Below are positions 1,180 to 31,590 of a stretch of DNA of 33,744 nucleotides, in pieces (positions within the stretch are counted from its first letter, which is position 1; each line of letters opens with the position of its first letter). This stretch comes from a bacterium (lineage in GTDB: Bacteria > Babelota > Babeliae > Babelales > JAUWHS01), in assembly GCA_043818275.1 (NCBI GenBank), contig JBDRFY010000073.1:1-33744 (forward strand). The letters run 5' to 3'. The notes under the pieces are model-generated. The model ran no database searches, had not been told where the DNA came from, and saw nothing but the letters and a program-made list of their open reading frames with translations. The position numbers and the translations under genes are program-made.

Positions 1180-2277
1180 CTATATTATAACTCCACAACC
1201 TAAACAAATTTCATCATCATAAAAAACAGCAAATTGCCCTGGAGCTATTCCCTGATCTCTTTTATCGATCCTTACAATTCCTAAATTTTCATTTTCAAAA
1301 TTCAATTCACAATTATAAAATTGCTCTCCATGCCTTACTTTTACTTGTAAATTGTTCTTATCAGGCTTTTGACCTGAAATCCAGTTAAAATTTGAAACAT
1401 TAAAAGTATCCCGCGCTTTATCTGATGAAAAATAATTTTTGGAAATATAAACAATATTTTTGGCCGTATCTTTGTCTACTACATACCAGGGACCGCCCGA
1501 AAGACCAATTCCTTTTCGTTGCCCAATCGTGTAATACCAAAAGCCTTCATGTTCACCAATAATTTTTCTTGTTTCAAATTCAATCAAATTACCTTTTTTA
1601 ATACCCAAATGATGTTTCAAAAATTCGTCATATTTAATTTTTCCCAAAAAACAAATTCCCTGACTGTCTTTTCTTTGTTTTGTTGCTAAATCAAATTTTT
1701 CAGCCAAAACTCTCACCTCAGATTTTAAAAGATTTCCAATTGGAAACATAGCCCGCGCAAGCTGTTTCTGATTTAGAAGCGATAAAAAATAAGTCTGATC
1801 TTTAACTTTATCTTTTGCTTTTTTTAATAAAAATTTTCCATTAATTTTCTTTTCCCCTGAGGGGAACCCGCCGAAGCCTTGTGCGAAGGCTGGGCTAACT
1901 TGAGCGTAATGACCTGTTGCAACATGCTCAAAACTCGGATCAATTTTATCGAAAAAAGCTCCAAACTTAATTTGTTGATTACAAAATAAATCAGGACTTG
2001 GAGTGCGACCATTTTTTACTTCATTAATTGCATAAGAAACAACAGATGACCAATATTCTTTTTGCAAAGAAAGAACCTGAAATGGAACATTTAATTGCTC
2101 ACAAACTTTTTCAACATATTCCAAATCTTGTCTCCAGGGACATTCACCCAAATGAGACAATTCTTCTTCTAACCAAATCTTTAAATAAAAGGCGGTAATA
2201 TTATGTCCCTGATCTTTTAATAATTTTAAAGAAACAGAGCTATCAACCCCACCAGAAAATAATACGGCTATTTTCAT
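1180..2277 (-). CDS. mnmA: tRNA 2-thiouridine(34) synthase MnmA, with a 14-aa palindrome-derived insertion
   Basis: Motifs SGGVDS, PDLFCN, ATGHYA, KDQTYFL, DSQGICF, YTIGQRKG and APGQFAVFY. Start taken at MKIAVL. Confidence 0.97.
   Translation of the reverse strand: MKIAVLFSGGVDSSVSLKLLKDQGHNITAFYLKIWLEEELSHLGECPWRQDLEYVEKVCEQLNVPFQVLSLQKEYWSSVVSYAINEVKNGRTPSPDLFCNQQIKFGAFFDKIDPSFEHVATGHYAQVSPAFAQGFGGFPSGEKKINGKFLLKKAKDKVKDQTYFLSLLNQKQLARAMFPIGNLLKSEVRVLAEKFDLATKQRKDSQGICFLGKIKYDEFLKHHLGIKKGNLIEFETRKIIGEHEGFWYYTIGQRKGIGLSGGPWYVVDKDTAKNIVYISKNYFSSDKARDTFNVSNFNWISGQKPDKNNLQVKVRHGEQFYNCELNFENENLGIVRIDKRDQGIAPGQFAVFYDDEICLGCGVII
1855..1896 (+). repeat. Family A GC-rich palindrome plus small hairpin, in frame within mnmA
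   Basis: CCCGCC-GAA-GCCTTGTGC-GAA-GGCTGGG (1867-1894) next to TTCCCC-TGA-GGGGAA (1852-1866). Encodes SPAFAQGFGGFPSG in MnmA. Confidence 0.85.
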
Positions 2278-2346
2278 AAACTCATTTCTTATATAAACAA
2301 ACAATTAATTAAAATGAAAATATAACATAATAGAGCTAAAATATGA

Positions 2347-2373
2347 AAAGGGCCCATCATAAATAGGCCCTTT
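2347..2373 (-). terminator. Probable intrinsic terminator of the nupC-like gene
   Basis: AAAGGGCC...GGCCCTTT inverted repeat just past the stop codon, followed by a T-run on the minus strand. Confidence 0.6.
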
Positions 2374-2381
2374 ATAAGGAT

Positions 2382-3629
2382 TTAAATCAATAAAGCGGCA
2401 ATAGCGGCATTTAATAAATTAACCAAAGTCCCGCCAAGAAGCGCCTTTAATCCCAATCTGGTCAATAATGGCCTTTGTTCAGGGCAAAGAGCTCCAACCC
2501 CGCCAATTAATATTCCAATAACTGAAAAGTTAGACATTCCACAAAGAGCATATGTCATAATAACTTGAGTTCTTTGTGAAATATTTTCTGCTAGAAAATT
2601 AATGTAAGCAATAAACTCATTCAAAACTATTTTTTGCCCTAACAAAGTTCCAGCTACTGCGCTATCAGTTTTCGACACTCCAATCAAATATGTAATTGGA
2701 GAAAAAACTTTCGCAAAAACCATATCAAGGGTATAAGGATTCGTGAATAACCCAAATGAAGTAGCCTTTACTAGTAAAAAATCAACCATAGCAATTAGGC
2801 TTATAAAAGAAATAAGCATCGCGCCAATATTTAGCGCCAAACTTAAACCATCAGTTGTTCCAACGGAAATAGCATCCAAAATATTTGCAGTTGTTCTTGT
2901 GCCATCCATTTTCATTCCGGTTGATGTTTGGGGTATACCTGTTTCCGGAACCAAAATTTTAGCTATCAAAATTGAACCCGGAATTGAGATTACACTTGCA
3001 GCTAATAAATGAATCTCAGGTATTCCAATTGCGCCATAAATAGCAATCAAAGAAGCGTTAAGAGTAGACATTCCTGCAACCATAACTAAAAATATTTCAG
3101 ATTCGGTCATACCTTTTAAATAATTTTTTACAAGAAGAGGCGCTTCTGTTGGCCCGAGCATGCTATTTCCAACAGCGCATAAAGTTTCAGCGCCAGAAGT
3201 TTTTAATAATGGACGAATAAGAAAAGAAATAATTTTCACAAAAAATTGTATAACTTTTAAATGATGCAGCAATGACATTAACGCGCCAAAAAATACTATT
3301 GCCGCTACAACTTTAACCGCAAAAATATATCCCCATGGTCCAGCTTCATTTACCAGGCCGCCAAAAACAAATTCCAACCCTTTATTTGCAAATGAATAAA
3401 CTTTTACAAAACCTTTAGCCAAATATTTAAATGTCGAATACCCAATGTTTGTTTTTAAAATAAAAACTGCAAATAAAAATTGAATAATTAACGCGTTAAT
3501 CATTGATTTGTAATTAATACGCTTTTTGTTATTCGAAAAAATAAAAGCTATAAGAAAAATAAAAAGAATAGAAAGAATTGTAAGATAATGATCATCCTGA
3601 ACCAAATATGATTTTATCCAATTAAACAT
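2382..3629 (-). CDS. NupC/CNT-family nucleoside transporter
   Basis: Multi-TM protein with CNT motifs FVFGGL, IVFFGALMSLL, TSGAE, TEAPLLVK, AMLISFISL, KIVLNEFIAY and YALCG. Confidence 0.93.
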   Translation of the reverse strand: MFNWIKSYLVQDDHYLTILSILFIFLIAFIFSNNKKRINYKSMINALIIQFLFAVFILKTNIGYSTFKYLAKGFVKVYSFANKGLEFVFGGLVNEAGPWGYIFAVKVVAAIVFFGALMSLLHHLKVIQFFVKIISFLIRPLLKTSGAETLCAVGNSMLGPTEAPLLVKNYLKGMTESEIFLVMVAGMSTLNASLIAIYGAIGIPEIHLLAASVISIPGSILIAKILVPETGIPQTSTGMKMDGTRTTANILDAISVGTTDGLSLALNIGAMLISFISLIAMVDFLLVKATSFGLFTNPYTLDMVFAKVFSPITYLIGVSKTDSAVAGTLLGQKIVLNEFIAYINFLAENISQRTQVIMTYALCGMSNFSVIGILIGGVGALCPEQRPLLTRLGLKALLGGTLVNLLNAAIAALLI

Positions 3630-3724
3630 AACAAATTACTCCTCAAAAAAAATAAGTGTTACAACAACTACGCTGTAACACTTTAATAAAAATTTTAGAT
3701 ATTGAAAAATTTATGAAAAATAAA

Positions 3725-3752
3725 ATTAATTTTCCAGCAAACTTTTTTGATG
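3725..3752. repeat. 28-bp direct repeat: duplicate of the prfA 3' end (att-like)
   Basis: ATTAATTTTCCAGCAAACTTTTTTGATG is identical to 4221-4248. Confidence 0.9.
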
Positions 3753-3834
3753 CCACAAAAATATATTCCTATACAAAAAAACACAAAAAAAAGATATTAA
3801 AATGGCACGTGAAAGATTAAAACAATTAATATAA
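3751..3834 (+). pseudogene. C-terminal remnant of a RelE/HigB-like toxin
   Basis: The frame reads ...FLYKKTQKKDIKMARERLKQLI*, resembling RelE/HigB/Gp49 toxin C-termini. No N-terminal part is present. It lies directly upstream of an XRE-HTH gene. Confidence 0.55.
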
Positions 3835-3904
3835 AATTAATAAATTCTAGCAAAAAAAATTACCGATATAAAAAAGGAAAAAAAGGAGAGAAAGGATAAT
3901 AAAA

Positions 3905-4213
3905 ATGAAACGTAAAAATTTTAAAAAATACATTGAAAAACGATTAACCAAAAGTGAAATTACAAAAATTGAACGTCAGGCAAAACTAGAAAAAAACGCT
4001 TTAAAAAATTTACAACAAGATATAACAAGCTTGTTAAGCAACTATATGAAAAAAGAAAAAATTGGATTTAATGAATTAGTTCGTCGTTTAAATGTAAGTC
4101 CTTCACACATCGCAAAAATTCAAAGAGGTGAAGCCAATTTAACATTATCAAGTTTAGCGCGTATTTCCTCTGTTCTTAATTTTTCTCCAAATTTAACGTT
4201 CTCAGACAAATAA
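3905..4213 (+). CDS. XRE-family HTH protein, HigA-like antitoxin
   Basis: C-terminal HTH_3 pattern IGFNELVRRLNVSPSHIAKIQRGEANLTLSSLARI. Strong AAGGA RBS. Confidence 0.85.
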   Translation: MKRKNFKKYIEKRLTKSEITKIERQAKLEKNALKNLQQDITSLLSNYMKKEKIGFNELVRRLNVSPSHIAKIQRGEANLTLSSLARISSVLNFSPNLTFSDK

Positions 4214-4220
4214 TAATTTT

Positions 4221-4248
4221 ATTAATTTTCCAGCAAACTTTTTTGATG
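4221..4248. repeat. 28-bp direct repeat overlapping the last 9 codons of prfA
   Basis: Identical to 3725-3752. Confidence 0.9.
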
Positions 4249-5286
4249 TCTTTGCGCGACATCCCATTCAATTAATGGATCAATTAAATCATCGAGATTA
4301 CCTTGTAAAACTATATCCAATTTTTTCAAAGTTAAATTAATTCTGTGATCAGTTATGCGATTTTGAGGAAAATTATAAGTCCTGACTTTTTCCGCGCGCT
4401 GCCCCATGCCAACTTGTTCTTTTCTTGAAGCCCCCATTTCTGCTTCTTTTCTTTCTTGCTCAGCTTCCAACAAACGCGCGCGCAAAACTTTCATCGCCTT
4501 GGCTTTATTTTTTATTTGCGAACGTTCGTCCTGACACGAAACAACAACTCCTGTTGGAATATGTGTAATTCTTACCGCTGAATCAGTTGTATTAACATGT
4601 TGTCCGCCAGCGCCACTTGCTCTAAAAACATCAATTCGTAAATCTTGAGGATTTATATCAAAATCAACTTCATCAACTTCAGGCAGCACTGCGACTGTTA
4701 CTGTAGATGTATGAATTCTTCCGGAAGCTTCTGTTTTTGGAACCCGCTGCACCCTGTGAACACCAGATTCAAATTTTAAATGTTTATAAACATTTTTACC
4801 TTTAATGTGCAAAATTATTTCTTTAAAACCACCAACTTCTGTTGAATGAGAATCTACAACAGAAACTTCCCAACCTTTGCTTAAAGCATAATTGGTATAC
4901 ATCTTTAACAAATCACCCGCAAATAAAGATGCTTCTTGTCCACCGGCTCCGGCGCGAATTTCCAAAAAAGCTGCTCTTTCATCCTTTTCATCCGCAGGAT
5001 ATAAAAGCTCTTCCAATTCCTGATTTAATTTTTTTAATTTCTTTTGATCAGTTTCAATTTCTTCCTCAAAAAGAACTTTCATTTCATCATCGGCTTGCAT
5101 TAACTGCTTTTTATTATCAGTTATGTTTTTTTCTAATTCGATAATACGCTCATAAACATCCAGTAATTCTGAAAATTGCGTAAATCTTCTTTGTAATTCT
5201 TTTCGTTCTTTTTTATCTAAGGAAGAATCTGAAAGCTTTTGTGATAACACTTCGTATTCTTTTTTAACCAATTCCCAATCAATCAT
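4222..5286 (-). CDS. prfA: Peptide chain release factor 1
   Basis: GAGGQHVN (GGQ), PKT (the RF1 PxT motif), [11 protein letters not shown] and RTYNFPQNR. Confidence 0.98.
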
Positions 5287-5309
5287 TGAAAAACCTCTAA
5301 AAAGCTAGA

Positions 5310-5344
5310 AAAGAGGCGCGCATTTAATTATTGCGCGCCTCTTT
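5310..5344 (-). terminator. Intrinsic terminator-like hairpin between rpmE and prfA
   Basis: AAAGAGGCGCGCA / TGCGCGCCTCTTT 13-bp perfect stem. Confidence 0.75.
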
Positions 5345-5362
5345 AAAACTAAATCAAAATAG

Positions 5363-5590
5363 TTACTTGCCTTTTTTCTTGGCTGCCTTTTTATTTTTTG
5401 CATAACGTTGCTCAAACTTATCTATTCTTCCTGCTATATCAATAAATTTTTGTTGTCCAGTAAAGAATGGATGACAAGCTGAACAAATATCAACGTGCAC
5501 TTCTTTAGAAGTTGACATTGCTTCAAAAGAATTTCCGCACGCGCATCTAAGAGCAACTTCAAAATTTTCTGGATGAATATCTTTTTTCAT
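5363..5590 (-). CDS. rpmE: 50S ribosomal protein L31 (zinc-binding type)
   Basis: [21 protein letters not shown] and GRIDKF. Confidence 0.97.
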
Positions 5591-5602
5591 AAGAAAGCAC
5601 CT

Positions 5603-6619
5603 TTACTTCATATCTTTTTTGTGTTGTTGATATTTATCTTTTAATTCCTTAATTATTTCAACAGGAATAGGATCAACACCACGATGTTTGCCTAGATAAT
5701 AAGACGCAAAATCAGACCATAAAATCATATTAAACAACTGACTTTCCCAAGTATCTCCTAAAAGTGGTGGTTTGTAAAGCTCGATCCCTCTTTCTTCCAA
5801 AATTTGACACATTGAATCAATCGCAATGTCCATGGAAGAAATTACAAAATCTGAATAAAATAAAACCACCAATGTTTTTTTCTTACAATCTGAAAACCCA
5901 ACCAATAAATTATGCGCTAATTCTGGAAAAACCGAATAAACAGCAGCTACCTTACTATTCTCATTAAATTGAGTTGCTGCCCTATATGCGAAAGCCGCAC
6001 TACCATTACTTACTCCCCAAACATGAAAAAATTCTTTATCACCAACACAGTTAATAAATTCTTTAAAATAAGTCTCATCTTCAAGTTTGGGTAAAAACAT
6101 ATCTGTATTTTTCAGCATTGTTTCAACTATTGCTTTCCCCTCAGGCAAAATCTCCATCAATTCAAACAAGGTCAATAAAAAACCCAGACAATTTCCCAGA
6201 GAAAAACGAGGTTGAATAACCTCAGGCAACAAAACAAAAGGAATGTTTTCTTTTTCAGCAATTTCTGCCGCTTTACCTCCATGAGTCAACACTACAGTTG
6301 GTATAAATTTTTTAGATAAAACATCCAACGCTTCTATTGTTTCCCATGTATTACCAGAATATGTTACAACAATTGCTAATGTATCTGCATCTATAAAATT
6401 AGGAACAATTGGACCATCAATAACAAAACTTGGAATATTTGTTTTTTGATCTAAAAAAAATTTTACAATCTTGCCCGAAATGCCTGAACCCCCCATACCA
6501 AAAAATGCAATTTTTTTAACATGCTTTGGTAACCGTACGGCATTATTAAAATGAAAATTATGCGCAAGGTCAGAACCATCTTTTATTTTTTGTGGCCATT
6601 TTTTTAATTCGTTAAGCAT
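5603..6619 (-). CDS. SIS-domain bifunctional phosphoglucose/phosphomannose isomerase
   Basis: GMGGSG, YSGNTWET, QPR, QFNENSK and PELAHN. Confidence 0.88.
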   Translation of the reverse strand: MLNELKKWPQKIKDGSDLAHNFHFNNAVRLPKHVKKIAFFGMGGSGISGKIVKFFLDQKTNIPSFVIDGPIVPNFIDADTLAIVVTYSGNTWETIEALDVLSKKFIPTVVLTHGGKAAEIAEKENIPFVLLPEVIQPRFSLGNCLGFLLTLFELMEILPEGKAIVETMLKNTDMFLPKLEDETYFKEFINCVGDKEFFHVWGVSNGSAAFAYRAATQFNENSKVAAVYSVFPELAHNLLVGFSDCKKKTLVVLFYSDFVISSMDIAIDSMCQILEERGIELYKPPLLGDTWESQLFNMILWSDFASYYLGKHRGVDPIPVEIIKELKDKYQQHKKDMK

Positions 6620-6646
6620 TGAAAGGACTCCTCTTGTTTTTCAAAA

Positions 6647-7351
6647 TCACTTTAACGCAACAATAGTTGCCTGCCTATAATCAGTCTTATTGTCCCTGCG
6701 ATAAGAATGAAAATTTTGAGAACAAATTGTGCAAACATTATATTCCATGCGTATATTTTGTAGCAAAACTCCACGATTTAACAACAACCTTTTATTTAAT
6801 TCAACTAGATTAAAAAATAAACCATGTTTCTTAATTAATAAATCAGCCCCAAAACTATAATGTTCCAGATTTTTTTCAAACCCCTGATCAACCTGGTAAC
6901 AACATGCATCTGCGCAAGCTCCAAAATGAATAATTAAATTTTCAGCCTCAATATTAAAAACATCCTTCATATTATCAATAACTTTATCAATAATATCAGC
7001 CACACTTCCCCGCCAACCAGCATGTATAATAGCAACAACAAATTTTACCGGGTCATATAAAATAACCGGCAAACAATCAGCGGTAAGAACTCCAATCCCA
7101 ATGTTGCGTAAATTTGTAATTAAATAGTCACCATTAATTTTGAATAAATTATTTTTTTTTAATTGATCTGGATCTGAAATAATCAAACCCTGATTGCTGT
7201 GAATTTGATTTAGAAAAAATAGACTTTGTAATTTAAGTTGTTCTTTTAATTGAGAAAGATATCTTTTAGTTAACTGATAATCAGATTTTACACAACGATC
7301 CTTTTTATCCCCAAAATAAATCTGATATGAAGAATCGTTGTGTAAAATCAT
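6647..7351 (-). CDS. pgeF: Peptidoglycan editing factor / purine nucleoside phosphorylase YfiH-like
   Basis: QIHS, LTADCLPV, HAGWRG, CCYQV and FHSYRR. Lies downstream of ftsZ. Confidence 0.92.
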   Translation of the reverse strand: MILHNDSSYQIYFGDKKDRCVKSDYQLTKRYLSQLKEQLKLQSLFFLNQIHSNQGLIISDPDQLKKNNLFKINGDYLITNLRNIGIGVLTADCLPVILYDPVKFVVAIIHAGWRGSVADIIDKVIDNMKDVFNIEAENLIIHFGACADACCYQVDQGFEKNLEHYSFGADLLIKKHGLFFNLVELNKRLLLNRGVLLQNIRMEYNVCTICSQNFHSYRRDNKTDYRQATIVALK

Positions 7352-7354
7352 AAA

Positions 7355-8566: not shown

Positions 8567-8636
8567 TCCTATCCCCTTTTTAATTTTCCAGGTTAAAAAA
8601 TTTTAATTTCAGTCACATCCCCTTGCCCCCAAAAAA

Positions 8637-12895: not shown

Positions 12896-12925
12896 CTTTT
12901 TTTGCATAAAACATGAATTTACTCT

Positions 12926-12954
12926 TTGACTTACTAAATTGTTTTATTTAGACT
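12926..12954 (+). promoter_or_regulatory. Sigma70-like promoter for tRNA-Val
   Basis: TTGACT-N17-TAGACT upstream of the tRNA. Confidence 0.6.
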
Positions 12955-12991
12955 TTCTTCATGTATTTTAAATGAAATTTTTAAAAATGAA

Positions 12992-13068
12992 GGGCGAATA
13001 GCTCAGCTGGTTAGAGCACCTGCCTTACAAGCAGGGGGTCACAGGTTCGAATCCTGTTTCGCCCACCA
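12992..13068 (+). tRNA. tRNA-Val (TAC)
   Basis: Acceptor GGGCGAA/TTCGCCC, anticodon arm CCTGC-CTTACAA-GCAGG, GGTTCGAATCC T-arm and encoded CCA. Confidence 0.98.
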
Positions 13069-13285
13069 GCCTCTGCTTGCTTCGCAAGCTACGGCTGGGC
13101 AGGCCAGCTTTTTAAATTGAATTGATATTAATAGAACCATATTGCGAAGACTGTCCGGCGTAGTAAAACTTACATTAAAACTTAGTAGTTCGAAGACGGA
13201 CTGGCACGGCCAGTTTATCCGGCGAAACCTTAGCAAAGTCGGACCTGTCCCGACGAAGTACCGCTCCTTGCGGCACGAAGTCGGA
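13066..13285. repeat. Cluster of four family A palindromes downstream of tRNA-Val
   Basis: Copies at 13066-13108 (minus; stem uses the tRNA CCA), 13151-13200, 13218-13243 and 13244-13285. All follow stem-G(A/T)A-hairpin-(purine-rich, usually GAA)-stem. Confidence 0.85.
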
Positions 13286-13337
13286 TTGAAATTTTTTCTC
13301 TATTTGATAAATTTTCAATATCATTGAAATAAATTGT

Positions 13338-13413
13338 TCCCCGATAGCTCAGTTGGTAGAGCAAACGACTGTTAATCGTTGGGTCGCAGGTTCGAGTCCT
13401 GCTCGGGGAGCCA
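13338..13413 (+). tRNA. tRNA-Asn (GTT)
   Basis: Acceptor TCCCCGA/TCGGGGA, anticodon arm AACGA-CTGTTAA-TCGTT, GGTTCGAGTCC and encoded CCA. Confidence 0.98.
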
Positions 13414-13581
13414 GCTTTCGCTCTAACGAGCTTCAGCTGGGCAGGCCAGCCAATTAATAAAATTAATATTAATCGAAAAGTTAAGCGAAAGATGCCTTTC
13501 ACTCCATAACTCATTAAAGCAAAGGCGGAAACAAATGGCCTATGAATTTGCCTGCCACGCCGAAGCCTTGGCGCAGGCGGG
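13411..13581. repeat. Family A palindromes downstream of tRNA-Asn
   Basis: CCAGCT-TTC-GCTC-TAAC-GAGC-TTC-AGCTGG-GCAGGCCAGC (13411-13450), a degenerate copy near 13485-13529, and CCTGCCACGCC-GAA-GCCTTGGC-GCA-GGCGGG (13551-13581). Confidence 0.85.
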
Positions 13582-13668
13582 AACGTTATCTTAAAACGTC
13601 ATCCGGTCGTGCGTTTTCTATAAAACGTTTGTAAAACACCTTTGTTTTTTACAAATTTTGGGGAAAAA

Positions 13669-14439
13669 ATGAAAAAATTTATTCTTTTTTTATTTATGTT
13701 CTTTGGGTCTATTTTCGCAAATAAAAATATTTTTGATCACCCAAAAATTCAACAACCAAATCTTCCTTTAATACATGAAACTGGAAATTTTAAATTGTAT
13801 TGTATTGCTGAAGATAAGCAGATTAGCTTAAAGGTTTTAGATGTTGCTGAAAAAAATTTCGAACAATGTTCTATCAATTTTAATCATAAATATAGTAATA
13901 AAATAAACTTATATATTTTTCATTGCTTACAAGATTTGCACGATGCCGTTGGAATGCCAGACGCAAAAGATCGTGTAGTAAACATATACGAACCAGAAAC
14001 ACATTCTTTTTTTACAGTCAATCCAGAGAATCATGGGTCATACTGTTCGGCTGAAGAGATTATTCAATTAAATATACATGGTTTAACTAATTTATTTATT
14101 AAAGATAAATATACAAAAGAAATTCCTTTTTGGTTTACTCATGGTCTTGGTCTTTGGAAAGCTAAATATATAGATAAAAATATTTTAGATGATCTAACTC
14201 TAAATCATGAGCTTGTCCCATCGTTACAACAATTGGAAAACTTTGATTTTTCTACAGATATCCATCGAGCAAGTTCATATTTAATCGTTGAATTTATTAA
14301 TCAAAAATGGGGATGGGAAAAAATATTAGATATTTTAGAAGACTATTCTTCTTTTGAAAAAATATTGGATGTTACCGAAAAAACCTTTAGAGACAAATTA
14401 ATTAACTATTTAGATAATACTATATCGCCAAAGGAATAG
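13669..14439 (+). CDS. Secreted peptidase MA (gluzincin)-like protein with degenerate catalytic motifs
   Basis: Signal peptide MKKFILF. IHGLTN where HExxH is expected and PFWFTHGL where PxWFxEG is expected. SSYLIVEFINQKWG C-terminal pattern. Confidence 0.7.
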   Translation: MKKFILFLFMFFGSIFANKNIFDHPKIQQPNLPLIHETGNFKLYCIAEDKQISLKVLDVAEKNFEQCSINFNHKYSNKINLYIFHCLQDLHDAVGMPDAKDRVVNIYEPETHSFFTVNPENHGSYCSAEEIIQLNIHGLTNLFIKDKYTKEIPFWFTHGLGLWKAKYIDKNILDDLTLNHELVPSLQQLENFDFSTDIHRASSYLIVEFINQKWGWEKILDILEDYSSFEKILDVTEKTFRDKLINYLDNTISPKE

Positions 14440-20141: not shown

Positions 20142-20462
20142 TTAACTTTTCTTTATTTTTCCATCCCTCATAACTTTAATTTCATATCCGCCTACGCCAA
20201 GCTTCCCGACTTTGCCATGCTTCGTCGAGGCGAGCGGCGGGACAGGTTCCATTTTAAGCTCAGTATTTTTTACAGTTTCGTTATTTGAACGGTTGTTGGT
20301 TCTTTTGTTCTCGGTTTCACCAGAAAGTCTATTTTCAATATCTGTTACTTTTTCAACCAGAATATTAAAACCCTTTTCTAACAAATCTACTTTTTGTTCG
20401 AGTGTCGATTTAGCACTTAAACCAGCAACTAAAAACGGTAATAACAAAATAAGCTTTTTCAT
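20142..20462 (-). CDS. Small secreted coiled-coil protein with a nested palindrome insertion
   Basis: Signal peptide MKKLILLL behind GGAGG; LEQKVDLLE coiled coil; 20 aa encoded by repeats. Confidence 0.8.
   Translation of the reverse strand: MKKLILLLPFLVAGLSAKSTLEQKVDLLEKGFNILVEKVTDIENRLSGETENKRTNNRSNNETVKNTELKMEPVPPLASTKHGKVGKLGVGGYEIKVMRDGKIKKS
20187..20246 (-). repeat. Two nested 30-bp family A palindromes, in frame
   Basis: Minus strand: CCTGTCCCGCCG[CTCGCCTCGACGAAGCATGGCAAAGTCGGG]AAGCTTGGCGTAGGCGGA = PVPPLASTKHGKVGKLGVGG. Confidence 0.85.
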
Positions 20463-20533
20463 ATTATTCCTCCAAATAGTCATTGACTAACAATCAACAA
20501 CAAAGCTTAAGATTGATAATTATTTATATTAAA

Positions 20534-22146: not shown

Positions 22147-22221
22147 AATGGGAGAAAATTATTTTTATAAAGGTTTTATGGTTTTCTTAAAGTCACAACT
22201 TAGGTATAATTAATATAAAAT

Positions 22222-23922: not shown

Positions 23923-24638
23923 TAAGCTGGTCCAGTCGCAACGCCTCCAAGTATCCCACCAACCATTGCGCCAACCTGAGAAGCGGCTTCTATTTCAGCG
24001 CCTAAAGCAGCCTCCATTTGCATGAAAGCTGCAGCGGTCGTCGCAGGATTGGCAGTTGCTATTCCTGCGGCAACGCTTGAAACAACTATAAAGCCATGAC
24101 CAACACCGTAAACTACTAATTTACCTATCCAACATCCAACAGCAGCCCCACCTGCGCCCCCACCATTTAACAACTGTTTGCAATGAATAATATATTCACC
24201 TTGCTCTGTTTTTGATAATTCCAAAAGTGAATATGGGCTAAATAAAACTTTAATTTCCGCGACTTCTTCTTTTGACAAATCTCCAAGCTTTGTAATTGGT
24301 ATATTTTGCGCGCTTTTTATCTCTGCTAAATCTTCAAGAGATATTTCCCTGACAGATAAAACATATTCTTTGTCATCAATTACAAAACGTTTATTTATTC
24401 CTAATAAATAAGAAAGTTGCAAATCAGAAATTTCGCGAACTTCTTTATCAACAAAAGCTCGCTCAACGTTGACTCTCTTTCCACTTTCTTCTTCGACAAT
24501 AAAATCATTCCCATTATGAAACAACTTCACATTTTTTAAATTTTTTGTTCGTAAATATTTAGATGGAATTTCCATTTCGTTTGAACGTAAACCAAAAGTT
24601 AAAAAGAAAGGAACCAGCAGCAAGTATTTTTTTAACAT
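23922..24638 (-). CDS. Secreted protein with an LNGGG junction and a Gly/Ala-zipper C-terminus
   Basis: Signal peptide, polar N-domain, ...EYIIHCKQLLNGGG, then ~78 aa hydrophobic GxxxG-rich tail. Confidence 0.85.
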   Translation of the reverse strand: MLKKYLLLVPFFLTFGLRSNEMEIPSKYLRTKNLKNVKLFHNGNDFIVEEESGKRVNVERAFVDKEVREISDLQLSYLLGINKRFVIDDKEYVLSVREISLEDLAEIKSAQNIPITKLGDLSKEEVAEIKVLFSPYSLLELSKTEQGEYIIHCKQLLNGGGAGGAAVGCWIGKLVVYGVGHGFIVVSSVAAGIATANPATTAAAFMQMEAALGAEIEAASQVGAMVGGILGGVATGPA

Positions 24639-25891: not shown

Positions 25892-26426
25892 ATATTTTCC
25901 CTTTATTTCTAATAATTATAAAATTTATTTTTTCTAATACATTTGAAAGTTCCTTCATCCTTACACCGATAAATTCAAGATTTAGGTTTTCTTCTTTTAA
26001 TTTTTTTTGCGCCTCTTCAATAAAAACACCTGGCTCAGAACATTTAGTTTTTCCAGCTTTATCGCAATAACAATAATCTATGGCGCAAGAAGGAGATCCG
26101 TTTACACAAATAAATCCTAAAATTTTATAATCATCATCAAGATACAGTTTATATCTATCAATTAATTCCTGGGCTTTTTTTGAACAAATTTTACGGTATT
26201 CAGAATTATTATATCTCTCTTTTCCGCAAGCATTTCGTTTTAAACCTTCATAGATAATTTCAGGACAAGAAACAACCGATAATCCAATGCCATTTTTAAT
26301 CAAAAGATCCAATAATTCTGCTACTGGTCCCTGACCTTTCATATTTCCAACACCATAAGCGCGTATGTTTTGATTTACCAGACATTCACTTATGAAAAAT
26401 ATTTTTTTAGATCTAAATGTTGGCAT
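25881..26426 (-). CDS. DUF523 / 2-thiouracil desulfurase-family Fe-S protein
   Basis: SECL, CPE and GSPSC Cys motifs; PGVFIEE. Confidence 0.8.
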   Translation of the reverse strand: MPTFRSKKIFFISECLVNQNIRAYGVGNMKGQGPVAELLDLLIKNGIGLSVVSCPEIIYEGLKRNACGKERYNNSEYRKICSKKAQELIDRYKLYLDDDYKILGFICVNGSPSCAIDYCYCDKAGKTKCSEPGVFIEEAQKKLKEENLNLEFIGVRMKELSNVLEKINFIIIRNKGKIYDL

Positions 26427-26463
26427 CTGAATTTCCCTAAATATTAAGACATTCCTAAAATTT

Positions 26464-26487
26464 AAGGCTCCGAAATATCGGAGCCTT
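26464..26487. terminator. Intrinsic terminator-like hairpin
   Basis: AAGGCTCCGA-AATA-TCGGAGCCTT. Confidence 0.65.
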
Positions 26488-26515
26488 TTGTTTATTTATA
26501 AGTTTTTATCTTTAT

Positions 26516-27463
26516 TCAACTAATGGTACAACCCTCAGGAACATCACTATTTATAAAAACACAATTTTCTACTGTCCCTCCACCTGGCAATGTTCCATTT
26601 AAAACAAAGGCATTTGGTCCAATTTGGGTTTTTACCAATCCTGGACCAGAATAATTATTTTCTTCTTCATCTAAATCATCTTCTCCATAGAATTCATATT
26701 CTCCAGAAATACATTTTCTTTTCAATCCAATAGGAACCAAAACTTTTCCACATCCCTCAAGCTCTAACCAGTGAAGCTCTTTTGCATTTACAAGACTTTC
26801 TGGTAATTTTTTTAGTTTTTTATTTCCTTCAAGATGAAACCACTTTAATTCAGATAACTTCTCAATATCATCAGGCAAAGTTGTAAGATTATTATCACTA
26901 AGATACAAGTGGCTTATTTTTATTTCTTTATCACATTTTAAAATAAAAGGGAAAATAGCCTTTAATTCATAATCTTCTAATTCTAATTCCTCTAAATGAA
27001 CAACATGCCATGGCCTAAGCCTAGAATTAATTTTCTGAATCTTTGCGAACCATTCTTTTAGCCAACTATTTTCAAGCTCTTTACTTTCAAGAATTTTACT
27101 TAGGTTAAAAAGTTTCACGGTATAACATTTATAATAAATATTAAATAAAAATTCTTTTCCATTATCAAATTTTTTATTTAACCCTAATGCAGTTGATAAT
27201 GGACAACATTCGGAATATTGGGATAAAATATATCTAAAAAGAAAATCATTTTTATGTTCTTCTATCCACTTTTCAAAATCCAACAAAGATGAAAAATCAG
27301 AAACTAGAATTTTCATAACCTCAGTATTTATATAACTGGCAGTCTTAGTAAACGATCTCGTATGGACTCTTCTTTGGGGGATTGTTTTATCAGGCGATTT
27401 CGCATATAAACCAAATGATAAAATAAAAGAAAAAGATAAAAATATTTTTTTCATATATTTCAT
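26516..27463 (-). CDS. Secreted leucine-rich-repeat protein ending in CaaX (CTIS)
   Basis: Signal peptide; LYLSDNNLTTLPDDIEKLSELKWFHLEGNKKLKKLPES LRRs; C-terminal GCTIS*. Confidence 0.9.
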   Translation of the reverse strand: MKYMKKIFLSFSFILSFGLYAKSPDKTIPQRRVHTRSFTKTASYINTEVMKILVSDFSSLLDFEKWIEEHKNDFLFRYILSQYSECCPLSTALGLNKKFDNGKEFLFNIYYKCYTVKLFNLSKILESKELENSWLKEWFAKIQKINSRLRPWHVVHLEELELEDYELKAIFPFILKCDKEIKISHLYLSDNNLTTLPDDIEKLSELKWFHLEGNKKLKKLPESLVNAKELHWLELEGCGKVLVPIGLKRKCISGEYEFYGEDDLDEEENNYSGPGLVKTQIGPNAFVLNGTLPGGGTVENCVFINSDVPEGCTIS

Positions 27464-27613
27464 AAAAATTCCTTCGATTAAAAAAATAAAAATTACCGGA
27501 CTAAAGCATAGATATAAATTTTATTTATTCAAGAAAATTTTAAACTTTGCCAAAACCAACTTTCCTGCTAAAATCAAACAACTTTTCATTTTAAAATTTA
27601 AATAGAATAAAAA

Positions 27614-28324
27614 ATGTTTAAAAAATTATTTTTCATCGCAATTCTTTTTTTATTTACTTCAATTTGCGCGAACACAGAAAATCAAACAACTTCCAATATT
27701 GAATCAACGCAACAAGAAAGTAGTTCTATTAAAAACAATTCTAAGGATTTAGATTATTTTTTGGAATTGTATGCAAATGATAAATGGAGATTTATGGGGA
27801 AAAAGTTTATTGATGAATGGAAGAATACTTTTGATAAAAACAAAGCAGTCGATGATGCTGTATTTTTAAACGTATTGTTCATGTTTTTATTTGATCCAAT
27901 AATTATTATTGGATCATTTATAGCTCTTGTATTGTATTCAGAAAAACATTATTGGACGGGCAGAGAAACTGCAAAAACCATTATTGCAACCCTAATCGCA
28001 GAAATAATATTGATTATTATATTACACCATATTGCAAACAAAAAATTAAACTCTCAAATGGATGATAAAGTTAAAGAAAGAAATTATTGGACAATTAAAC
28101 ACTTTTTAAATAATTGGCAAAAATACAAACACATAACCCCAAAGGAACTATATCCTTTATTTGAAAAATTAATACCTATTTTTGACGAATTAAAACGCTA
28201 TGATGACACAAAAATAATTGAGGAAATTCAGCAACAAGTAAGAGATAATCAATCTGTTTATTATGAACAATACAAACAATCAATAACAAAACCACCGGTA
28301 ATAAATAACTATTACTACCACTAA
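27614..28324 (+). CDS. Hypothetical membrane protein (signal peptide plus 2 TM)
   Basis: MFKKLFF leader and two internal hydrophobic helices. Confidence 0.85.
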   Translation: MFKKLFFIAILFLFTSICANTENQTTSNIESTQQESSSIKNNSKDLDYFLELYANDKWRFMGKKFIDEWKNTFDKNKAVDDAVFLNVLFMFLFDPIIIIGSFIALVLYSEKHYWTGRETAKTIIATLIAEIILIIILHHIANKKLNSQMDDKVKERNYWTIKHFLNNWQKYKHITPKELYPLFEKLIPIFDELKRYDDTKIIEEIQQQVRDNQSVYYEQYKQSITKPPVINNYYYH

Positions 28325-28383
28325 ACAATATTATTAAAAAAGGCCTAATTGCAAGGCCTAATTTTATTGGATTTTAAAAAATT

Positions 28384-30255
28384 TTAATTAGCCACAGGCT
28401 CAAATTCGACAGGTTCAACATCCTCTTTACCTGTACCCGTCAAAACTTCTTTTGTAACGCTTTTAAATATCCTGGTTGTTGTACTGTCTTCAGGTTTTTC
28501 TTCGAGGTGTTTTTTCTTAAAATCTTCCAACTCTTCTCCTACTAATTCTTTGCCCTTTTCCCCTATTTTTTTAACTTTTGATTTAACCCATTCAACAACT
28601 TTACTCTTTTCTGGCTCAGGTTCTTTTTCCTCTTCAACCTTTTTTTCTATATCAACTTTTTCTGTTTCAACAATCACTTCCGGTTTTACAATCCCTTCTT
28701 TTTCTGATTTTTGTTCGGCGGTAATTTCTGTTTTTTTAAGATTTTCACCCCGATCATCCTCCCTTCGACTACGCTCAGGGTGAACGGGTTGAAGAATCGC
28801 AACAGGCAAAGGAATTAAAATGTCTTTTTTAGCAATTCCTTCTGGTAAAAAACCAAATATTTTTATCAAATCTATTTCATCAAATTTTGGAGTATGTTGT
28901 TTAATGAGATCTACTGAATTTTGAACAAAACCATAAACTGTATTTTGGCCATCGACAGGAATAAATACGCTTCGTGATTTTAATGTTTTTTCCATTTCAG
29001 ATTTTGCCAGTTCTATTTCTTCTTTTGCTTTTTGAGTTTTTTCAAAGGCTAATATAACTTCTTTATCATCCCGATCACCCTCCCTTCGACTAAGCTCAGG
29101 GTGAACGGATCGAAAGGCATCCTCATTTGCCTTTTGAGCTTGTTCAACCGACAACTCAAATTCGTCAGAATTAAATTCTTCTCCGGACTGTTTTTTATCG
29201 TAAAGTTCTTTTGAATGTTTTTCTGCTTCCTGATAAGCCTTTTCAGCCTCCTGCATTTTTTCCTGATACGGTTTGATAAAATTTTTACCAACAAAAGAAA
29301 TTTCATCACCTTTTAAATCAATAATTTTTATTGGTGTTGCTGATTCCAAAATTAATTTATTCGCTTTAGGCAAAATATTTTGTCTCACATAAGCTGCGAC
29401 CAGATTTAATAAATCATTTGCATCTTGAATGGATAATTCCTGATCTTCGGATAATTTTAATAAATCGTTTGGAGTTATAATTTTTTCCGCCACAACCTTT
29501 TCTTGATCAACGATTTTTTCTTTTTTAGGTTCTTCTGATATTGTTTCAGGTTTAGTCGCTTCAGGCTTTGTAGCTTCTGATTCTTTAAATTCTTCACCGG
29601 AAACTTCACCAACAGGCATTTCAGTTTTATCTTCATCTTTTTTTAATAACGCTTCATCCCATGAAGTGAATTCTGTTACATCTCCAGCCTCAAGCGCTGC
29701 GGCCCCTGCAGTTCCAAGGCCCGCAAGACCAACACTTGCTGTGCCTAAGCCGCCTAAACCCAGTCCACCTCCAGCGCCAACCCCTGTTCCAACTCCAGTA
29801 GATTTTTTAACGGAAGGTCTAATTAAACTTTTGAGCAAATTATATTCATAATGTTCAATTATTTCACTCGCTTTTCCTACATCTGGCGCTAACTTATCAT
29901 ATTGTTTTTGTAAGCGTTTTAATTTTTCTTCAGCAGCCTTTTTTTCTTCTCCTTGTTTTTTTTCAATATCATTTTTCTTTTGATTTATTTTTTCATTTAA
30001 AGTTCTAAATGTTTCAACCATTTCATCGTAAACTTGCTTGCTAGATTTACCATGTACCTTTTCTGATTTTTGCGTATCTGTTAAAGCTGATGAATATTTT
30101 ATATTCTCATATGTCTTATCAACTTTACGAGGCGCAAATTTTTTAATTATTCCCCTTTTTTCCTTGGCGTTTACATTTACAAAAGAAAAAATTATTAACA
30201 CCCCCCACAAAAAAATTACTTTTTTAAAATATTTAATCAAACAAAATTTATACAT
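28384..30255 (-). CDS. Large secreted acidic coiled-coil protein with a Gly-rich segment and two palindrome insertions
   Basis: 623-aa ORF with a signal peptide, GVGAGGGLGLGG segment, E/K-rich composition, and VHPE(L/R)SRRE(G/D)DR twice. Confidence 0.88.
   Translation of the reverse strand: MYKFCLIKYFKKVIFLWGVLIIFSFVNVNAKEKRGIIKKFAPRKVDKTYENIKYSSALTDTQKSEKVHGKSSKQVYDEMVETFRTLNEKINQKKNDIEKKQGEEKKAAEEKLKRLQKQYDKLAPDVGKASEIIEHYEYNLLKSLIRPSVKKSTGVGTGVGAGGGLGLGGLGTASVGLAGLGTAGAAALEAGDVTEFTSWDEALLKKDEDKTEMPVGEVSGEEFKESEATKPEATKPETISEEPKKEKIVDQEKVVAEKIITPNDLLKLSEDQELSIQDANDLLNLVAAYVRQNILPKANKLILESATPIKIIDLKGDEISFVGKNFIKPYQEKMQEAEKAYQEAEKHSKELYDKKQSGEEFNSDEFELSVEQAQKANEDAFRSVHPELSRREGDRDDKEVILAFEKTQKAKEEIELAKSEMEKTLKSRSVFIPVDGQNTVYGFVQNSVDLIKQHTPKFDEIDLIKIFGFLPEGIAKKDILIPLPVAILQPVHPERSRREDDRGENLKKTEITAEQKSEKEGIVKPEVIVETEKVDIEKKVEEEKEPEPEKSKVVEWVKSKVKKIGEKGKELVGEELEDFKKKHLEEKPEDSTTTRIFKSVTKEVLTGTGKEDVEPVEFEPVAN
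28749..28787. repeat. Family B 39-bp palindrome, in frame (copy 1)
   Basis: CCCGATCATCCTCCCTTCGACTACGCTCAGGGTGAACGG; 37/39 identical to 29070-29108. Confidence 0.9.
29070..29108. repeat. Family B 39-bp palindrome, in frame (copy 2)
   Basis: CCCGATCACCCTCCCTTCGACTAAGCTCAGGGTGAACGG; flanks unrelated to copy 1. Confidence 0.9.
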
Positions 30256-30398
30256 TTTTCTCCCAAATTTTAGTTCGTTATTTATTTTTTTAATTTTAAA
30301 TAATTTAGTAACAAAAAAACTATTTTGCAGTCAATTAAAACATTTTTATAAATCTAATTATAATTGATCTATGCAATTTTCTTTTACCCATTCAAAAA

Positions 30399-30428
30399 AA
30401 TTCCCGCAGTAGTTTTACTGCGGGAATT
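30399..30428 (-). terminator. Intrinsic terminator of the ankyrin gene
   Basis: AATTCCCGCAGTA-GTTT-TACTGCGGGAATT with a T-run on the minus strand. Confidence 0.8.
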
Positions 30429-30451
30429 CAACGTTAATAACACTTGAAAGT

Positions 30452-31237
30452 TTATATGTTATATCTTTTAAGATTTTCTTCTCTTTTAGCATTAAAAGTT
30501 TCAACAGAAATTTTATCGTCATCAATAACAAACTTGTTAACTTCTTCTAAAGCATATTTCAAATCCAAAAAACTATATTTTTCGCCTGGATTAAATCCAA
30601 CAAAAAAATTTTCTAACTCTTTATTTTGCAAATCTTTAATATAATGCATATAGTTTGTCAAATTTTTAAAATCATCCACGAACATTAATATCAAAATTAT
30701 TTCAAACAAATAGGTGTTCTTATGATTAGCAAATAATTTTTTCGCTTCCTCACTATTAAAATATTTATCCCAAACCGTTTGTCCTTGTAAATTTTTTATA
30801 TCTACTCTAGCACCAGCCATAAGCAAATAAGCAAAAAGAGCTTTTTTTGTATAAAGACTATCCATAATATAATGCAATGGTGTATCACCATTATCATCTT
30901 GAATGTTTACATCTGCTTTTTCCTTAAATATTAATTCTTTGATAAATGGGATAGCTTCTTTATAATTATTTTTTGTAAGGTTTACAGACAATGCAACATG
31001 CAAAGGTGTACGTCCTTTATCATCTTGCATATTAATCAATTTACTTTGCGGACAATCTTTATCCTTCAAAATATAACCAACAATAGCTGAATTAAAGGCG
31101 GATTTATCGAAATTTGAAGCCGCTTTATGAATAGGAAATTTATTCCTTCGCCCCAAAAACGCAGAAACATTATTGTTTAACATAGAAACTGCCAACAAAG
31201 CGGCAAGAATTATTTTTTTAAAACTCAACGTATTCAT
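30452..31237 (-). CDS. Secreted ankyrin-repeat protein
   Basis: GRTPLHVA, ADVNIQDDNGDTPLH and GARVDIKN; signal peptide. Start at MNTL behind GGAGG. Confidence 0.92.
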   Translation of the reverse strand: MNTLSFKKIILAALLAVSMLNNNVSAFLGRRNKFPIHKAASNFDKSAFNSAIVGYILKDKDCPQSKLINMQDDKGRTPLHVALSVNLTKNNYKEAIPFIKELIFKEKADVNIQDDNGDTPLHYIMDSLYTKKALFAYLLMAGARVDIKNLQGQTVWDKYFNSEEAKKLFANHKNTYLFEIILILMFVDDFKNLTNYMHYIKDLQNKELENFFVGFNPGEKYSFLDLKYALEEVNKFVIDDDKISVETFNAKREENLKRYNI

Positions 31238-31509
31238 CTCTCTAACCTCCAATTTTGGTTAAATAAAAAACTGACATAAAAACCTTGCTATACTTGCAAC
31301 GAAATCTGTCCTTAGATTCCGCATTTATTTCATATATAAAACTTACCATAAGCCTTTATTTATCGCAAAAGGCCGGTTGCAAGAGTAGCAATTTTGGGCA
31401 AAAATCAAATATTTTTGAAAAAAAGCAAGAAAAAGGGCATATTTTTAGAATAAAAATTTATAAACTTATTCCTCAAGAAACAAGAAATTCTCTTATCGCA
31501 AATGGTCTA

Positions 31510-31590
31510 ATATCATCAAAAGAATAGTGGTTAAAATAGTCCAACAGGGGGAGCCAGTCTTCGCCCTTTGGGCTACGCCTGGCACGGCCA
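31510..31590. repeat. attR-like junction: 34-bp flank, tRNA-Asn 3' fragment and family A palindrome
   Basis: AGTCC-AACAG-GGGGAGCCA then GTC-TTC-GCCC-TTT-GGGC-TAC-GCCTGG-CACGGCCA. The following AT tail resembles the tail after the tRNA-Val element. Confidence 0.75.

Follow-up and report, generated by a model that had tools for sequence, protein, structure and literature searches.

The contig JBDRFY010000073.1 of GenBank assembly GCA_043818275.1, from a bacterium of the Babelales, is 33,744 nucleotides long and is referred to below, in its whole length, as the window. It contains a family of GC-rich interrupted hairpins, here called family A, whose copies lie at tRNA ends, in spacers, and within open reading frames (ORFs). 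The repeat family is real and widespread, and apparently it is undescribed. We consider it probable that family A is the non-autonomous hairpin module of a selfish element that occupies tRNA ends and encodes a small GIY-YIG nuclease. The full element would consist of the CCA of a tRNA or tmRNA gene, a trailer hairpin, an AT-rich spacer, a second hairpin, and the gene for a single-domain GIY-YIG protein of 80 amino acids. By analogy with the enzyme SsnA and its NTS hairpin, we infer that the nuclease recognises the folded hairpin together with its CNTG tag on one strand of single-stranded DNA and introduces a nick next to it. The module, gene included or not, would afterwards be copied through break repair or gene conversion to other tRNA ends, to the loops of other palindromic repeats, and to tolerant loops on protein surfaces, where GC-rich copies free of stops could persist in frame.

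Read on the strand that carries the purine-rich loop, the plan of family A is a CNTG tag, a half-stem (T/C)CC-NNC, the loop word G(A/T)A, an inner hairpin that begins with G and finishes with C, a second G(A/T)A, and the half-stem GNN-GG(A/G). The hairpin can thus be pictured as a 5' tag followed by a 6-bp outer stem of free sequence, a 3x3 internal loop that could close by sheared G-A pairs, and a swappable inner hairpin, its classes being an 8-nt form GYYTTRRC, stems of 4-6 bp, the form GTRCCGC-N4-GCGGYAC, and two longer ones (some 30 and 37 nt). A preliminary description, made from the letters of the window alone, had given the leader as CCTGYC-like; a leader is present, but CNTG (CCTG, CTTG, CATG or CGTG) describes it better.

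The same description had claimed about ten copies in the window, and GC-rich interrupted hairpins were found at all ten places. A covariance model, R1, built from 25 seed copies (five from the window and 20 from other contigs), recovers eight of the ten. With filters off, R1 gives eight matches in the window at an expect value (E) of at most 10, every one a claimed copy; five of these are seeds of the model and three are not, namely 13240-13287 (E 0.018), 13146-13202 (E 0.029) and 20203-20237 (E 0.033). The degenerate copy at 13218 and the outer shell of the nested copy at 20187 were recognised by eye and have no R1 score at E<=10. In total the 1.33-Mb, 31% GC genome has about 110-125 copies. 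An initial strict descriptor (five perfect pairs, inner stem of at least 3) missed most copies and was loosened afterwards; the refined descriptor finds 124 copies in the genome versus 15 in the reversed, uncomplemented genome, and an R1 search gives 127 matches at E<=1 from 150 scored of 323 first-look candidates. When the genome was scanned for a 6-bp stem, 3 nt, a hairpin, 3 nt and the closing stem with the loop words left free, GAA/GAA ranked first among all pairs of 3-nt words (55), followed by its complement TTC/TTC (43), GAA/GTA (20) and GTA/GAA (20). Beyond this genome, the exact core (22-base-equivalent) recurs at no fewer than 121 places across phyla, including Patescibacteria, Alphaproteobacteria, Verrucomicrobiota, Bacteroidota and other groups, where by our own estimate fewer than one would be expected by chance. 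In a phylum sample of 151 genomes, consisting of the genome carrying the window and 150 others, all of one order, 111 have an R1 match at E<=1e-4.

The observation that the stems change in sequence and still pair proved right, as free positions pair beyond what permutation yields, in a test that does not presuppose pairing. For 80 public loci from many phyla, with the core fixed and two middle positions of each half-stem left free, 87.5% of the free cells pair, versus 53% after permuting the partners (maximum 64% in 2000 permutations), and both free pairs are formed in 76% of the loci versus 28% when permuted. In the alignment of the 25 seeds 95.6% of cells are paired and none of 500 shuffles is as high, a result that is circular because the seeds had been picked by a pairing rule. 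At 13066, 13249 and 13411 DNA folding gives the interrupted hairpin as predicted, and the 31554 copy folds into a structure close to it, with z between -2.7 and -4.4 for the four. For the nested copy at 20188 the nested helices come out as predicted, but with z -0.05 the fold is no better than shuffles; the copy at 1867 takes a different fold (z -1.8), those at 13218 and 13556 fold no better than shuffles, and the fold at 13151 was run on a stretch 3 nt too short and is not a fair test. No Rfam family matches any copy at E<=1 in a search of the whole window, where the convincing matches are the tRNAs and a group II intron fragment only.

The location of the copies was counted on 117 non-overlapping strict copies. 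Fifteen copies lie at the 3' end of a tRNA or tmRNA gene, always with the pyrimidine-loop strand in the tRNA sense, and four abut the 5' end of a tRNA gene (three tRNA-Ser and one tRNA-Thr), always in the opposite orientation. Another 41 lie in both orientations inside open frames of 100 codons or more; the family avoids coding DNA and is not excluded from it, because such frames make up 89.6% of the genome. With a looser CCA-anchored descriptor, a CCA-paired trailer is found at 27 of the 46 tRNA and tmRNA genes, and in 23 of these the loop words are T-N-C-like. In the tRNA sense the trailer reads CCA-NNN, TWC, hairpin, TWC, N'N'N'-TGG, a loop of 4-5 nt (CAGG, CACGG, CGCGG or CATG), CCA(N), and often a T-run, which follows the distal CCA in 11 of 23 trailers inspected by eye. 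It follows from this layout that the tRNA's own CCA supplies the first three bases of the outer stem. In the window, the encoded CCA of tRNA-Val (13066-13068) forms the first three nucleotides of its trailer stem, which runs CCAGCC TCT GCTTGC-TTCG-CAAGC TAC GGCTGG GCAGG CCAGC and then into a T-run, the part 13093-13109 with the T-run scoring as terminator-like; the tRNA-Asn trailer reads CCAGCT TTC GCTC-TAAC-GAGC TTC AGCTGG GCAGG CCAGCC.

No GIY-YIG or Y1 gene is present in the window, and the trans-acting enzyme that had been postulated must be sought elsewhere; both of the enzyme types then suggested, a small GIY-YIG protein and a Y1 transposase, are encoded in the rest of the genome. By adjacency and by co-occurrence the GIY-YIG family is the better partner. 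Besides UvrC the genome has six small GIY-YIG ORFs, in two classes. Two ORFs of about 95 amino acids (class 1) have inverted copies of another repeat, family B, on both sides; with these YhbQ-like genes, family B looks like a second nuclease-plus-repeat element. The four class 2 ORFs, of 80 amino acids with the start M-x-Y-V-Y, all lie downstream of a tRNA, and three of them show the layout clearly, with a trailer followed by an AT-rich spacer, a second family A hairpin, some 20-50 nt, and the ATG; the locus on contig C6 is less clear. Class 2 homologues were located at 12 loci, in as many genomes of different families, and each of them has an R1 match upstream at a distance of less than 400 nt; nine have a called tRNA or tmRNA with its 3' end towards the ORF, and at the other three the trailer follows an uncalled ...CCA. 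On contig C47 of the congener used here for comparison, a trailer lies upstream of the GIY-YIG ORF and a family A hairpin directly follows the stop codon. The order of trailer, hairpin and ATG-TTY-TAT-GTT-TAY was also seen by eye at three alphaproteobacterial loci fetched by the core motif (L058, L059, L115), and a tRNA lies within 328 nt at 11 of the 80 core-motif loci.

Co-occurrence was counted in 31 related genomes, the figures being descriptive as such genomes are not independent. Among the 14 genomes with at least ten R1 copies, 13 have a class 2 GIY-YIG match and seven a Y1_Tnp match; among the 11 genomes with 1-9 copies the numbers are five and eight, and the six genomes without copies have neither. 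The link between enzyme and repeat that these counts suggest is correlative. The class 2 protein is single-domain (PF01541 at 61 bits, with a weak T5orf172 match besides), and its catalytic set is intact: in 11 homologues of 51-66% identity Y5, R27, H31 and E63 are the same throughout, and Y17 and N32 almost throughout. Its nearest solved proteins are SLX1 (E 4.6e-5) and UPF0213 BH0048 (E 1.6e-4), and its protein language-model look-alikes are clusters of 80-amino-acid GIY-YIG proteins from several phyla. NCBIfam names neither GIY-YIG class, the sole match being a group I intron endonuclease at 18.7 bits against a cutoff of 56.

Presence and absence of copies differ between related genomes. 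The mnmA copy of the window codes for an in-frame insert of 15 amino acids, SPAFAQGFGGFPSGE, which is found in none of 11 orthologues taken from the order's other families; MnmA of the congener has the same insert and, in the 3' loop of the copy, a further nested insert of 57 nt that keeps the frame. In UvrC, two family A copies (DPPKLYAKAG and SCFAKASQD) are both missing in the congener, and the second is missing also in three more distant orthologues. The trailer of tRNA-Val is kept in the congener with an altered outer stem, the change being uncompensated, and the interval from tRNA-Val to tRNA-Asn holds one copy there versus three copies and a 100-nt block in the window. In the congener, tRNA-Asn has no trailer and the orthologue of ORF 20142-20483 no nested copy; its tRNA-Arg(CCT) orthologue is followed by another trailer and lacks the nuclease gene. 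Across the 31 related genomes the number of R1 copies ranges from zero (six genomes) to 81 and differs within families. These differences mark family A as mobile, or at least rapidly turning-over, DNA and not as a fixed housekeeping signal. A side observation is that the mnmA genes of two genomes from other families (G022 and G027) carry unrelated GC-rich in-frame inserts of about 35-45 amino acids in the same MnmA loop, apparently a place where insertions repeatedly land or are tolerated.

As to the unit that moves, the elements at tRNA-Arg(CCT) and near tRNA-Arg(TCT) have trailer, spacer and hairpin in common and ORFs that are 83% identical, and they diverge right after the stop codon, which suggests a unit extending from the base after the CCA to the end of the ORF. 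A clean empty site of the complete element was sought in the congener, where in both attempts synteny ends right after the tRNA cluster; the right boundary therefore rests solely on the by-eye comparison of these two copies. Several further points weigh against a nuclease-driven tRNA-end element. Most copies, 97 of 117, lie away from tRNA ends and far from any nuclease gene; of the 25 genomes that have R1 matches, seven lack a class 2 GIY-YIG match, among them one (G010) with 36 copies and a completeness of 85%; and for solo copies in non-coding DNA no clean empty/filled junction was found. The second UvrC copy is a net gain of 3 amino acids relative to the congener and 4-5 relative to other families, and for this reason looks like a replacement and not a simple insertion. 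The purine-loop strand of the copies at tRNA 3' ends runs antisense to the tRNA, and a T-run follows half the trailers, so that some trailers may serve as terminators or in processing. Finally, the copies are divided without bias with respect to GC skew (41 versus 37). An IS200/IS605-like mechanism, with replication-coupled movement of single strands, might yield strand bias, and the lack of it gives no support for a mechanism at the replication fork.

A bolder proposal, and in our judgement an unlikely one, is that the element uses its target to make part of its own stem, a bare GIY-YIG nuclease bringing about target-templated palindrome formation at the CCA ends of stable RNAs. It is suggested by the three mutually matched, target-specific words of the tRNA-linked copies (CCA-NNN, N'N'N'-TGG and CCA-N), seen with the upstream complement TGG-CNTG-CCA in nine of 19 such copies versus one of 97 others, provided that the match arises at insertion. 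If true, this would be a new transposition or homing chemistry, present in many bacterial phyla and seeding in-frame peptides in essential proteins.

Among other explanations, the likeliest, which has real support but to which we give a low probability, is that family A is a repetitive extragenic palindromic (REP)-type repeat moved by the genome's own Y1 (HUH) transposases of the REP-associated tyrosine transposase (RAYT) type, which would cut and join single-stranded hairpins as in REP sequences and bacterial interspersed mosaic elements (BIMEs). The genome has five intact Y1_Tnp genes and one fragment, and the four of these genes that are RAYT-like, with products of about 150 amino acids, are flanked by inverted hairpin repeats. 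On contig C76 the flank, TCGGGT GTA GCCRTTAGGC GAA ACCCGT, has a family A-like stem, a 3x3 G-A loop and an inner hairpin; the REP next to the RAYT gene of contig C59 has a family A copy nested within it, a composite that occurs about seven times; and GTAG is present at the loop/stem joint of many family A copies. However, the repeat that flanks the RAYT genes (CCACGGGT..ACCCGAGGCTAATAAC) is a different one, inverted family A proper surrounds none of the four genes, and the flank on C76 shares the loop architecture alone. Half of the 14 genomes rich in copies have no match to PF01797 (Y1_Tnp), whereas 13 have the GIY-YIG gene; in the loci examined no RAYT gene lies beside a tRNA trailer; and the even distribution of copies relative to GC skew tells against this mechanism too. 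In the C76 flank, GTA-hairpin-GAA takes the place of the TAAA loop of the repeat at C59 and C60.

It is quite unlikely that the copies are, as a family, RNA structures selected by the host, that is, tRNA 3' trailers that terminate transcription or guide processing through CCA pairing, the remaining copies being duplicates or exaptations. The covariation of the stems, the presence of trailers at about 23 of 46 tRNA and tmRNA genes, the T-runs noted above, the terminator-like tail of the tRNA-Val trailer and its conservation in the congener would all fit such a role. Nevertheless, a host RNA role cannot account for the same element standing in opposite orientation at tRNA 5' ends (four of four), for copies in ORFs in both orientations, or for the polymorphism, which includes the missing tRNA-Asn trailer and the different tRNA-Arg(CCT) trailer of the congener and the absence of family A from six of the 31 related genomes. 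In the stretch 12900-13700, moreover, one terminator-like site was found versus a mean of 1.1 in shuffles. That there is no single family, and that unrelated GC-rich hairpins (terminators, REPs, coding bias) resemble each other by chance in an AT-rich genome, is highly improbable: the degenerate or poor window copies (13218 unscored, three at E 0.02-0.03) and the copies that fold no better than shuffles would suit it, but it is refuted by the first rank of GAA/GAA among loop words, the recurrence of the exact core, the covariation, and the descriptor counts against the reversed control.

The features of the window and the enzyme genes discussed above are collected in Table 1.

Table 1. Family A copies and associated features of the window, with transposase and class 1 nuclease genes on other contigs (C numbers) of the same genome
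Feature	Position	Strand	Evidence or remark
Family A copy inside mnmA	1854..1896	+ (ORF on -)	R1 30.2 bits
Mini-hairpin of the mnmA copy, CCCC-TGA-GGGG	1854..1864		
Core of the mnmA copy, CCCGCC GAA GCCTTGTGC GAA GGCTGG	1867..1893		
tRNA-Val(TAC)	12992..13068	+	ARAGORN and Rfam
tRNA-Val trailer copy	13066..13108	-	R1 29.6 bits; fold z -4.39
Block of about 100 nt, not in the congener	13109..13213	+	R1 match 13146-13202, E 0.029
Degenerate copy TCCGGC GAA ACCTTAGC AAA GTCGGA	13218..13243	+	Weak fold; positional counterpart in the congener
Copy with leader CCTGT and long inner hairpin	13244..13285	+	R1 E 0.018; fold z -2.66; absent in the congener
tRNA-Asn(GTT)	13338..13413	+	ARAGORN and Rfam
tRNA-Asn trailer copy	13411..13451	-	R1 37.1 bits; fold z -3.68
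Probably the decayed spacer arm of an element without ORF (AATTAATAAAATTAATATTAATCGAAAAGTTAAGCGAAAGATG...)	13452..13550	+	By-eye likeness to the spacer 5' of GIY-YIG genes
Copy CCTGC CACGCC GAA GCCTTGGC GCA GGCGGG	13551..13581	+	R1 38.1 bits
Nested double copy in ORF 20142-20483	20187..20246	-	R1 inner copy E 0.033; three nested helices
Trailer-type copy after ...GGGGGAGCCA	31554..31590	-	R1 38.0 bits; fold z -2.89
RAYT-like Y1 gene	C36:2823-3164		Own-type inverted palindromes
RAYT-like Y1 gene	C59:425-766		Own-type inverted palindromes
RAYT-like Y1 gene	C60:13535-13876		Own-type inverted palindromes
RAYT-like Y1 gene	C76:3903-4241		Own-type inverted palindromes
IS200/IS605-type TnpA gene	C33:18482-18841		
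YhbQ-like GIY-YIG gene, 95 amino acids	C18:20566-20778		Flanked by inverted family B
YhbQ-like GIY-YIG gene, 95 amino acids	C75:30805-31020		Flanked by inverted family B

The region around the two tRNA genes illustrates how the parts of the element can occur without its gene. The block at 13109-13213 consists of an AT-rich spacer (TTTTTAAATTGAATTGATATTAATAGAA...), a leader GCGAAGACTG, a long-form copy at 13154-13200 (TCCGGC GTA, an inner part of 29 nt, GAA GACGGA; 13150-13200 for the copy as a whole) and a terminal CTGGCACGGCCAG; this module of spacer plus hairpin recurs after other tRNAs and ahead of GIY-YIG genes, and contains no gene here. The copy at 13244-13285 reads CCCGAC GAA GTACCGC-TCCTT-GCGGCAC GAA GTCGGA. 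In a BLAST comparison, window positions 13571-13635 match positions 522-586 of contig C47 of the congener at 85%, and by eye the copy at 13551 occupies the place of the congener's hairpin just 3' of the GIY-YIG ORF, with a shared flank from about 13582. Because this flank starts directly after the hairpin, the 13551 copy marks the far end of an element whose ORF has been lost in the genome of the window. In the nested pair at 20187 the outer copy reads CCTG TCCCGCC ... GTA GGCGGA and the inner copy TCGAC GAA GCATGGC AAA GTCGG.

The copy at 31554 reads CCAGTC TTC GCCC-TTT-GGGC TAC GCCTGG CACGG CCA, followed by a T-run and an AT-rich spacer. It was observed that the sequence 5' of it (window 31500-31556: ..AAAAGAATAGTGG..ATAGTCCAA.AG.GGGAGCCA) is conserved at about 960-1010 of contig C47 in the congener, where the homologue precedes a trailer and a GIY-YIG gene. 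The idea that this stretch is a pseudo-tRNA draws on GGGGAGCCA, which it has in common with the 3' end of tRNA-Asn; neither ARAGORN nor Rfam makes a call on it, and it overlaps the end of an open frame that is conserved in the congener.

Other repeats also carry family A copies nested in their loops, namely family B (CCGCTCGYCCTG|AGCGWAGTCGAAGG), the REP beside a RAYT gene and, in Bradyrhizobium loci, a presumed CGTC-type repeat of Di Nocera et al. At three loci (L093, L107 and L127, from Bradyrhizobium and an alphaproteobacterial metagenome-assembled genome) the family A core was observed within a palindrome CGTCATTGCGAGCG.AGCGAC[..]AGCAATCCA, which from its sequence looks like a CGTC-type REP, that is, the SsnA-type repeat of the 2025 paper by Chenal et al. 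(PMC11893778); if so, two hairpin systems interleave in the same genomes. With regard to family B, a copy of this type (...CCTTCGACTACGCTCAGGGTGAACGGG...) is located at window 28748-28789 within the ORF 28384-30255 on the minus strand, which codes for 623 amino acids and has no Pfam match. At C21:3787-5787 the genome has an ORF for a 666-amino-acid membrane protein with at least three repeat-encoded peptides (PSTSLPTSPRLRRAGRTSG, ARPACPAKPWRSRERSRRV, RCSQLHQGFAGQAGRTG).

The window is the whole of contig C73 in an assembly of 1,325,288 bp, 92 contigs and 30.8% GC. Its genes include mnmA, a prfA-like RF-1 gene, ftsA, ftsZ, and genes for a nucleoside transporter and a deoxynucleoside kinase, together with several coding for ankyrin, LRR, TPR and pentapeptide proteins, a content that fits a host-dependent bacterium. 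The group II intron fragment (domains D1-D4) lies at window 1-102 on the minus strand, truncated by the contig end, and scores 38.2 bits (E 1.1e-7), below the Rfam gathering score of 49 bits. Two other GC-rich stretches, at 24031-24169 and 29672-29800, are not family A; they resemble low-complexity Gly/Ala/Pro-rich coding sequence on the minus strand, and a near-identical stretch occurs at C32:679-730.

The preliminary description had envisaged an uncharacterised single-strand hairpin element under structural constraint, served by an enzyme encoded elsewhere, and as far as computation can show all parts of this hold. Family A accounts for many of the GC-rich islands of a reduced genome, including about half of the tRNA 3' flanks and the peptide inserts in MnmA, UvrC and other proteins. 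It is also a warning for annotation that conserved, covarying tRNA trailers are not necessarily RNA elements. Should the 80-amino-acid nuclease indeed act on family A, new site-specific nucleases for single-stranded DNA would be on offer, and a common source of spurious GC-rich "hypothetical proteins", as well as part of the assembly breaks in metagenome-recovered genomes, would be explained.

The novelty assumed for the family is reduced because systems of nuclease plus hairpin were published in 2025 (PMC11893778): the family is undescribed so far as we found, but the combination of a tiny GIY-YIG protein with hundreds of hairpin repeats is in print. No account of a GIY-YIG element at tRNA ends, and none of Dependentiae palindromic repeats, turned up in a literature search to which subscription journals and preprint supplements were not open, and the part of the Minerva preprint available to us (10.64898/2026.09.22.753630) does not treat family A. 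The text of Di Nocera et al. 2013 (PMC3733652), as far as it was available, describes GTAG and CGTC repeats with variable inner-hairpin loops and copies inside repair genes, gives no known transposase for the CGTC repeats, and equates RPE-4 and RPE-6, two Rickettsia palindromic elements (RPEs), with them. A repeat of the REP/RAYT kind would have a conserved, unpaired GTAG or CGTC tag at one end of a simple 20-40 bp palindrome; the tag of family A is CNTG. Many family A copies contain TGTC (CCTGTCC, CTTGTCC), which the same text lists as a variant of CGTC, but the stems of 8-9 bp starting with AT that it gives for the CGTC family are not seen in family A, and G(A/T)AG lies within the family A hairpin and not at its end. 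Family A fits neither tag class cleanly.

The resemblance to RPEs consists in palindromes that are GC-richer than their AT-rich intracellular host and that add a short in-frame peptide and leave the protein unbroken. RPEs, which Ogata and colleagues reportedly described in 2000 as lying in frame in protein genes, are longer, at about 100-150 bp; they are a separate sequence family and, to our knowledge, are not tied to tRNA CCA ends. The Seg proteins of phage T4 offer a different parallel, SegB being encoded in a tRNA cluster: in both cases a small selfish GIY-YIG gene lies between or beside tRNAs, and its spread is presumed to proceed through break repair with co-conversion of the flanks. Seg proteins, however, have DNA-binding domains and cut double-stranded DNA, whereas here a bare catalytic core of 80 amino acids is combined with structured hairpin arms, and these arms exist also as more than 100 solo copies. 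With REPs, BIMEs and REPINs family A shares high copy number, short palindromes, variable loops that may hold inner hairpins, and occasional copies in genes, and the RAYT systems, of which this genome has examples too, likewise have a dedicated enzyme gene flanked by the repeat. The differences are that the RAYT genes of this genome are flanked by a repeat other than family A, and that family A tracks GIY-YIG better than Y1_Tnp, sits at tRNA ends, and has an outer stem of 6 bp that is free in sequence.

The closest parallel is the Ssn system. According to the available text of Chenal et al. (Nat Commun 2025, PMC11893778), SsnA of Neisseria is a GIY-YIG protein of 94 amino acids that binds the NTS hairpin solely as single-stranded DNA and cuts a few nucleotides 5' of it, three bases before the palindrome governing cleavage; its gene is often flanked by the repeat, and the authors also remark on an IS-like layout of repeat, gene and repeat. 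Their criterion for such nucleases is a single-domain GIY-YIG protein of about 90 amino acids in the CDD family cd10448, and their Supplementary Data 4 lists Candidatus Babela massiliensis with zero SRM and no ssnA homologue. The SRM pattern from the same text, HGTCWYN(0-2)YYVSBRHN(0-5)WNVSBRGN(0-2)RNCYNB, has no match on either strand of the genome studied here and one in the reversed control. The tag is CNTG in family A versus CGTC-AT in the Ssn repeats, the hairpin of family A is interrupted by the 3x3 G-A loop and has a swappable inner hairpin, and family A is anchored at the CCA ends of tRNA and tmRNA genes, the word tRNA being absent from the main text of that paper. On the other hand, both systems combine a single-domain GIY-YIG protein of about 80-95 amino acids with a short hairpin repeat that carries a conserved 5' tag and occurs in tens to hundreds of copies; in both the nuclease gene is flanked by the repeats, which are enriched in genomes possessing the gene, and both are strongly enriched in symbionts with small genomes. 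If the 80-amino-acid nuclease acts on family A, the Ssn principle, in which a bare GIY-YIG core reads a single-stranded hairpin, would extend to a second, structurally distinct class of targets whose genomic address, the CCA end, is defined.

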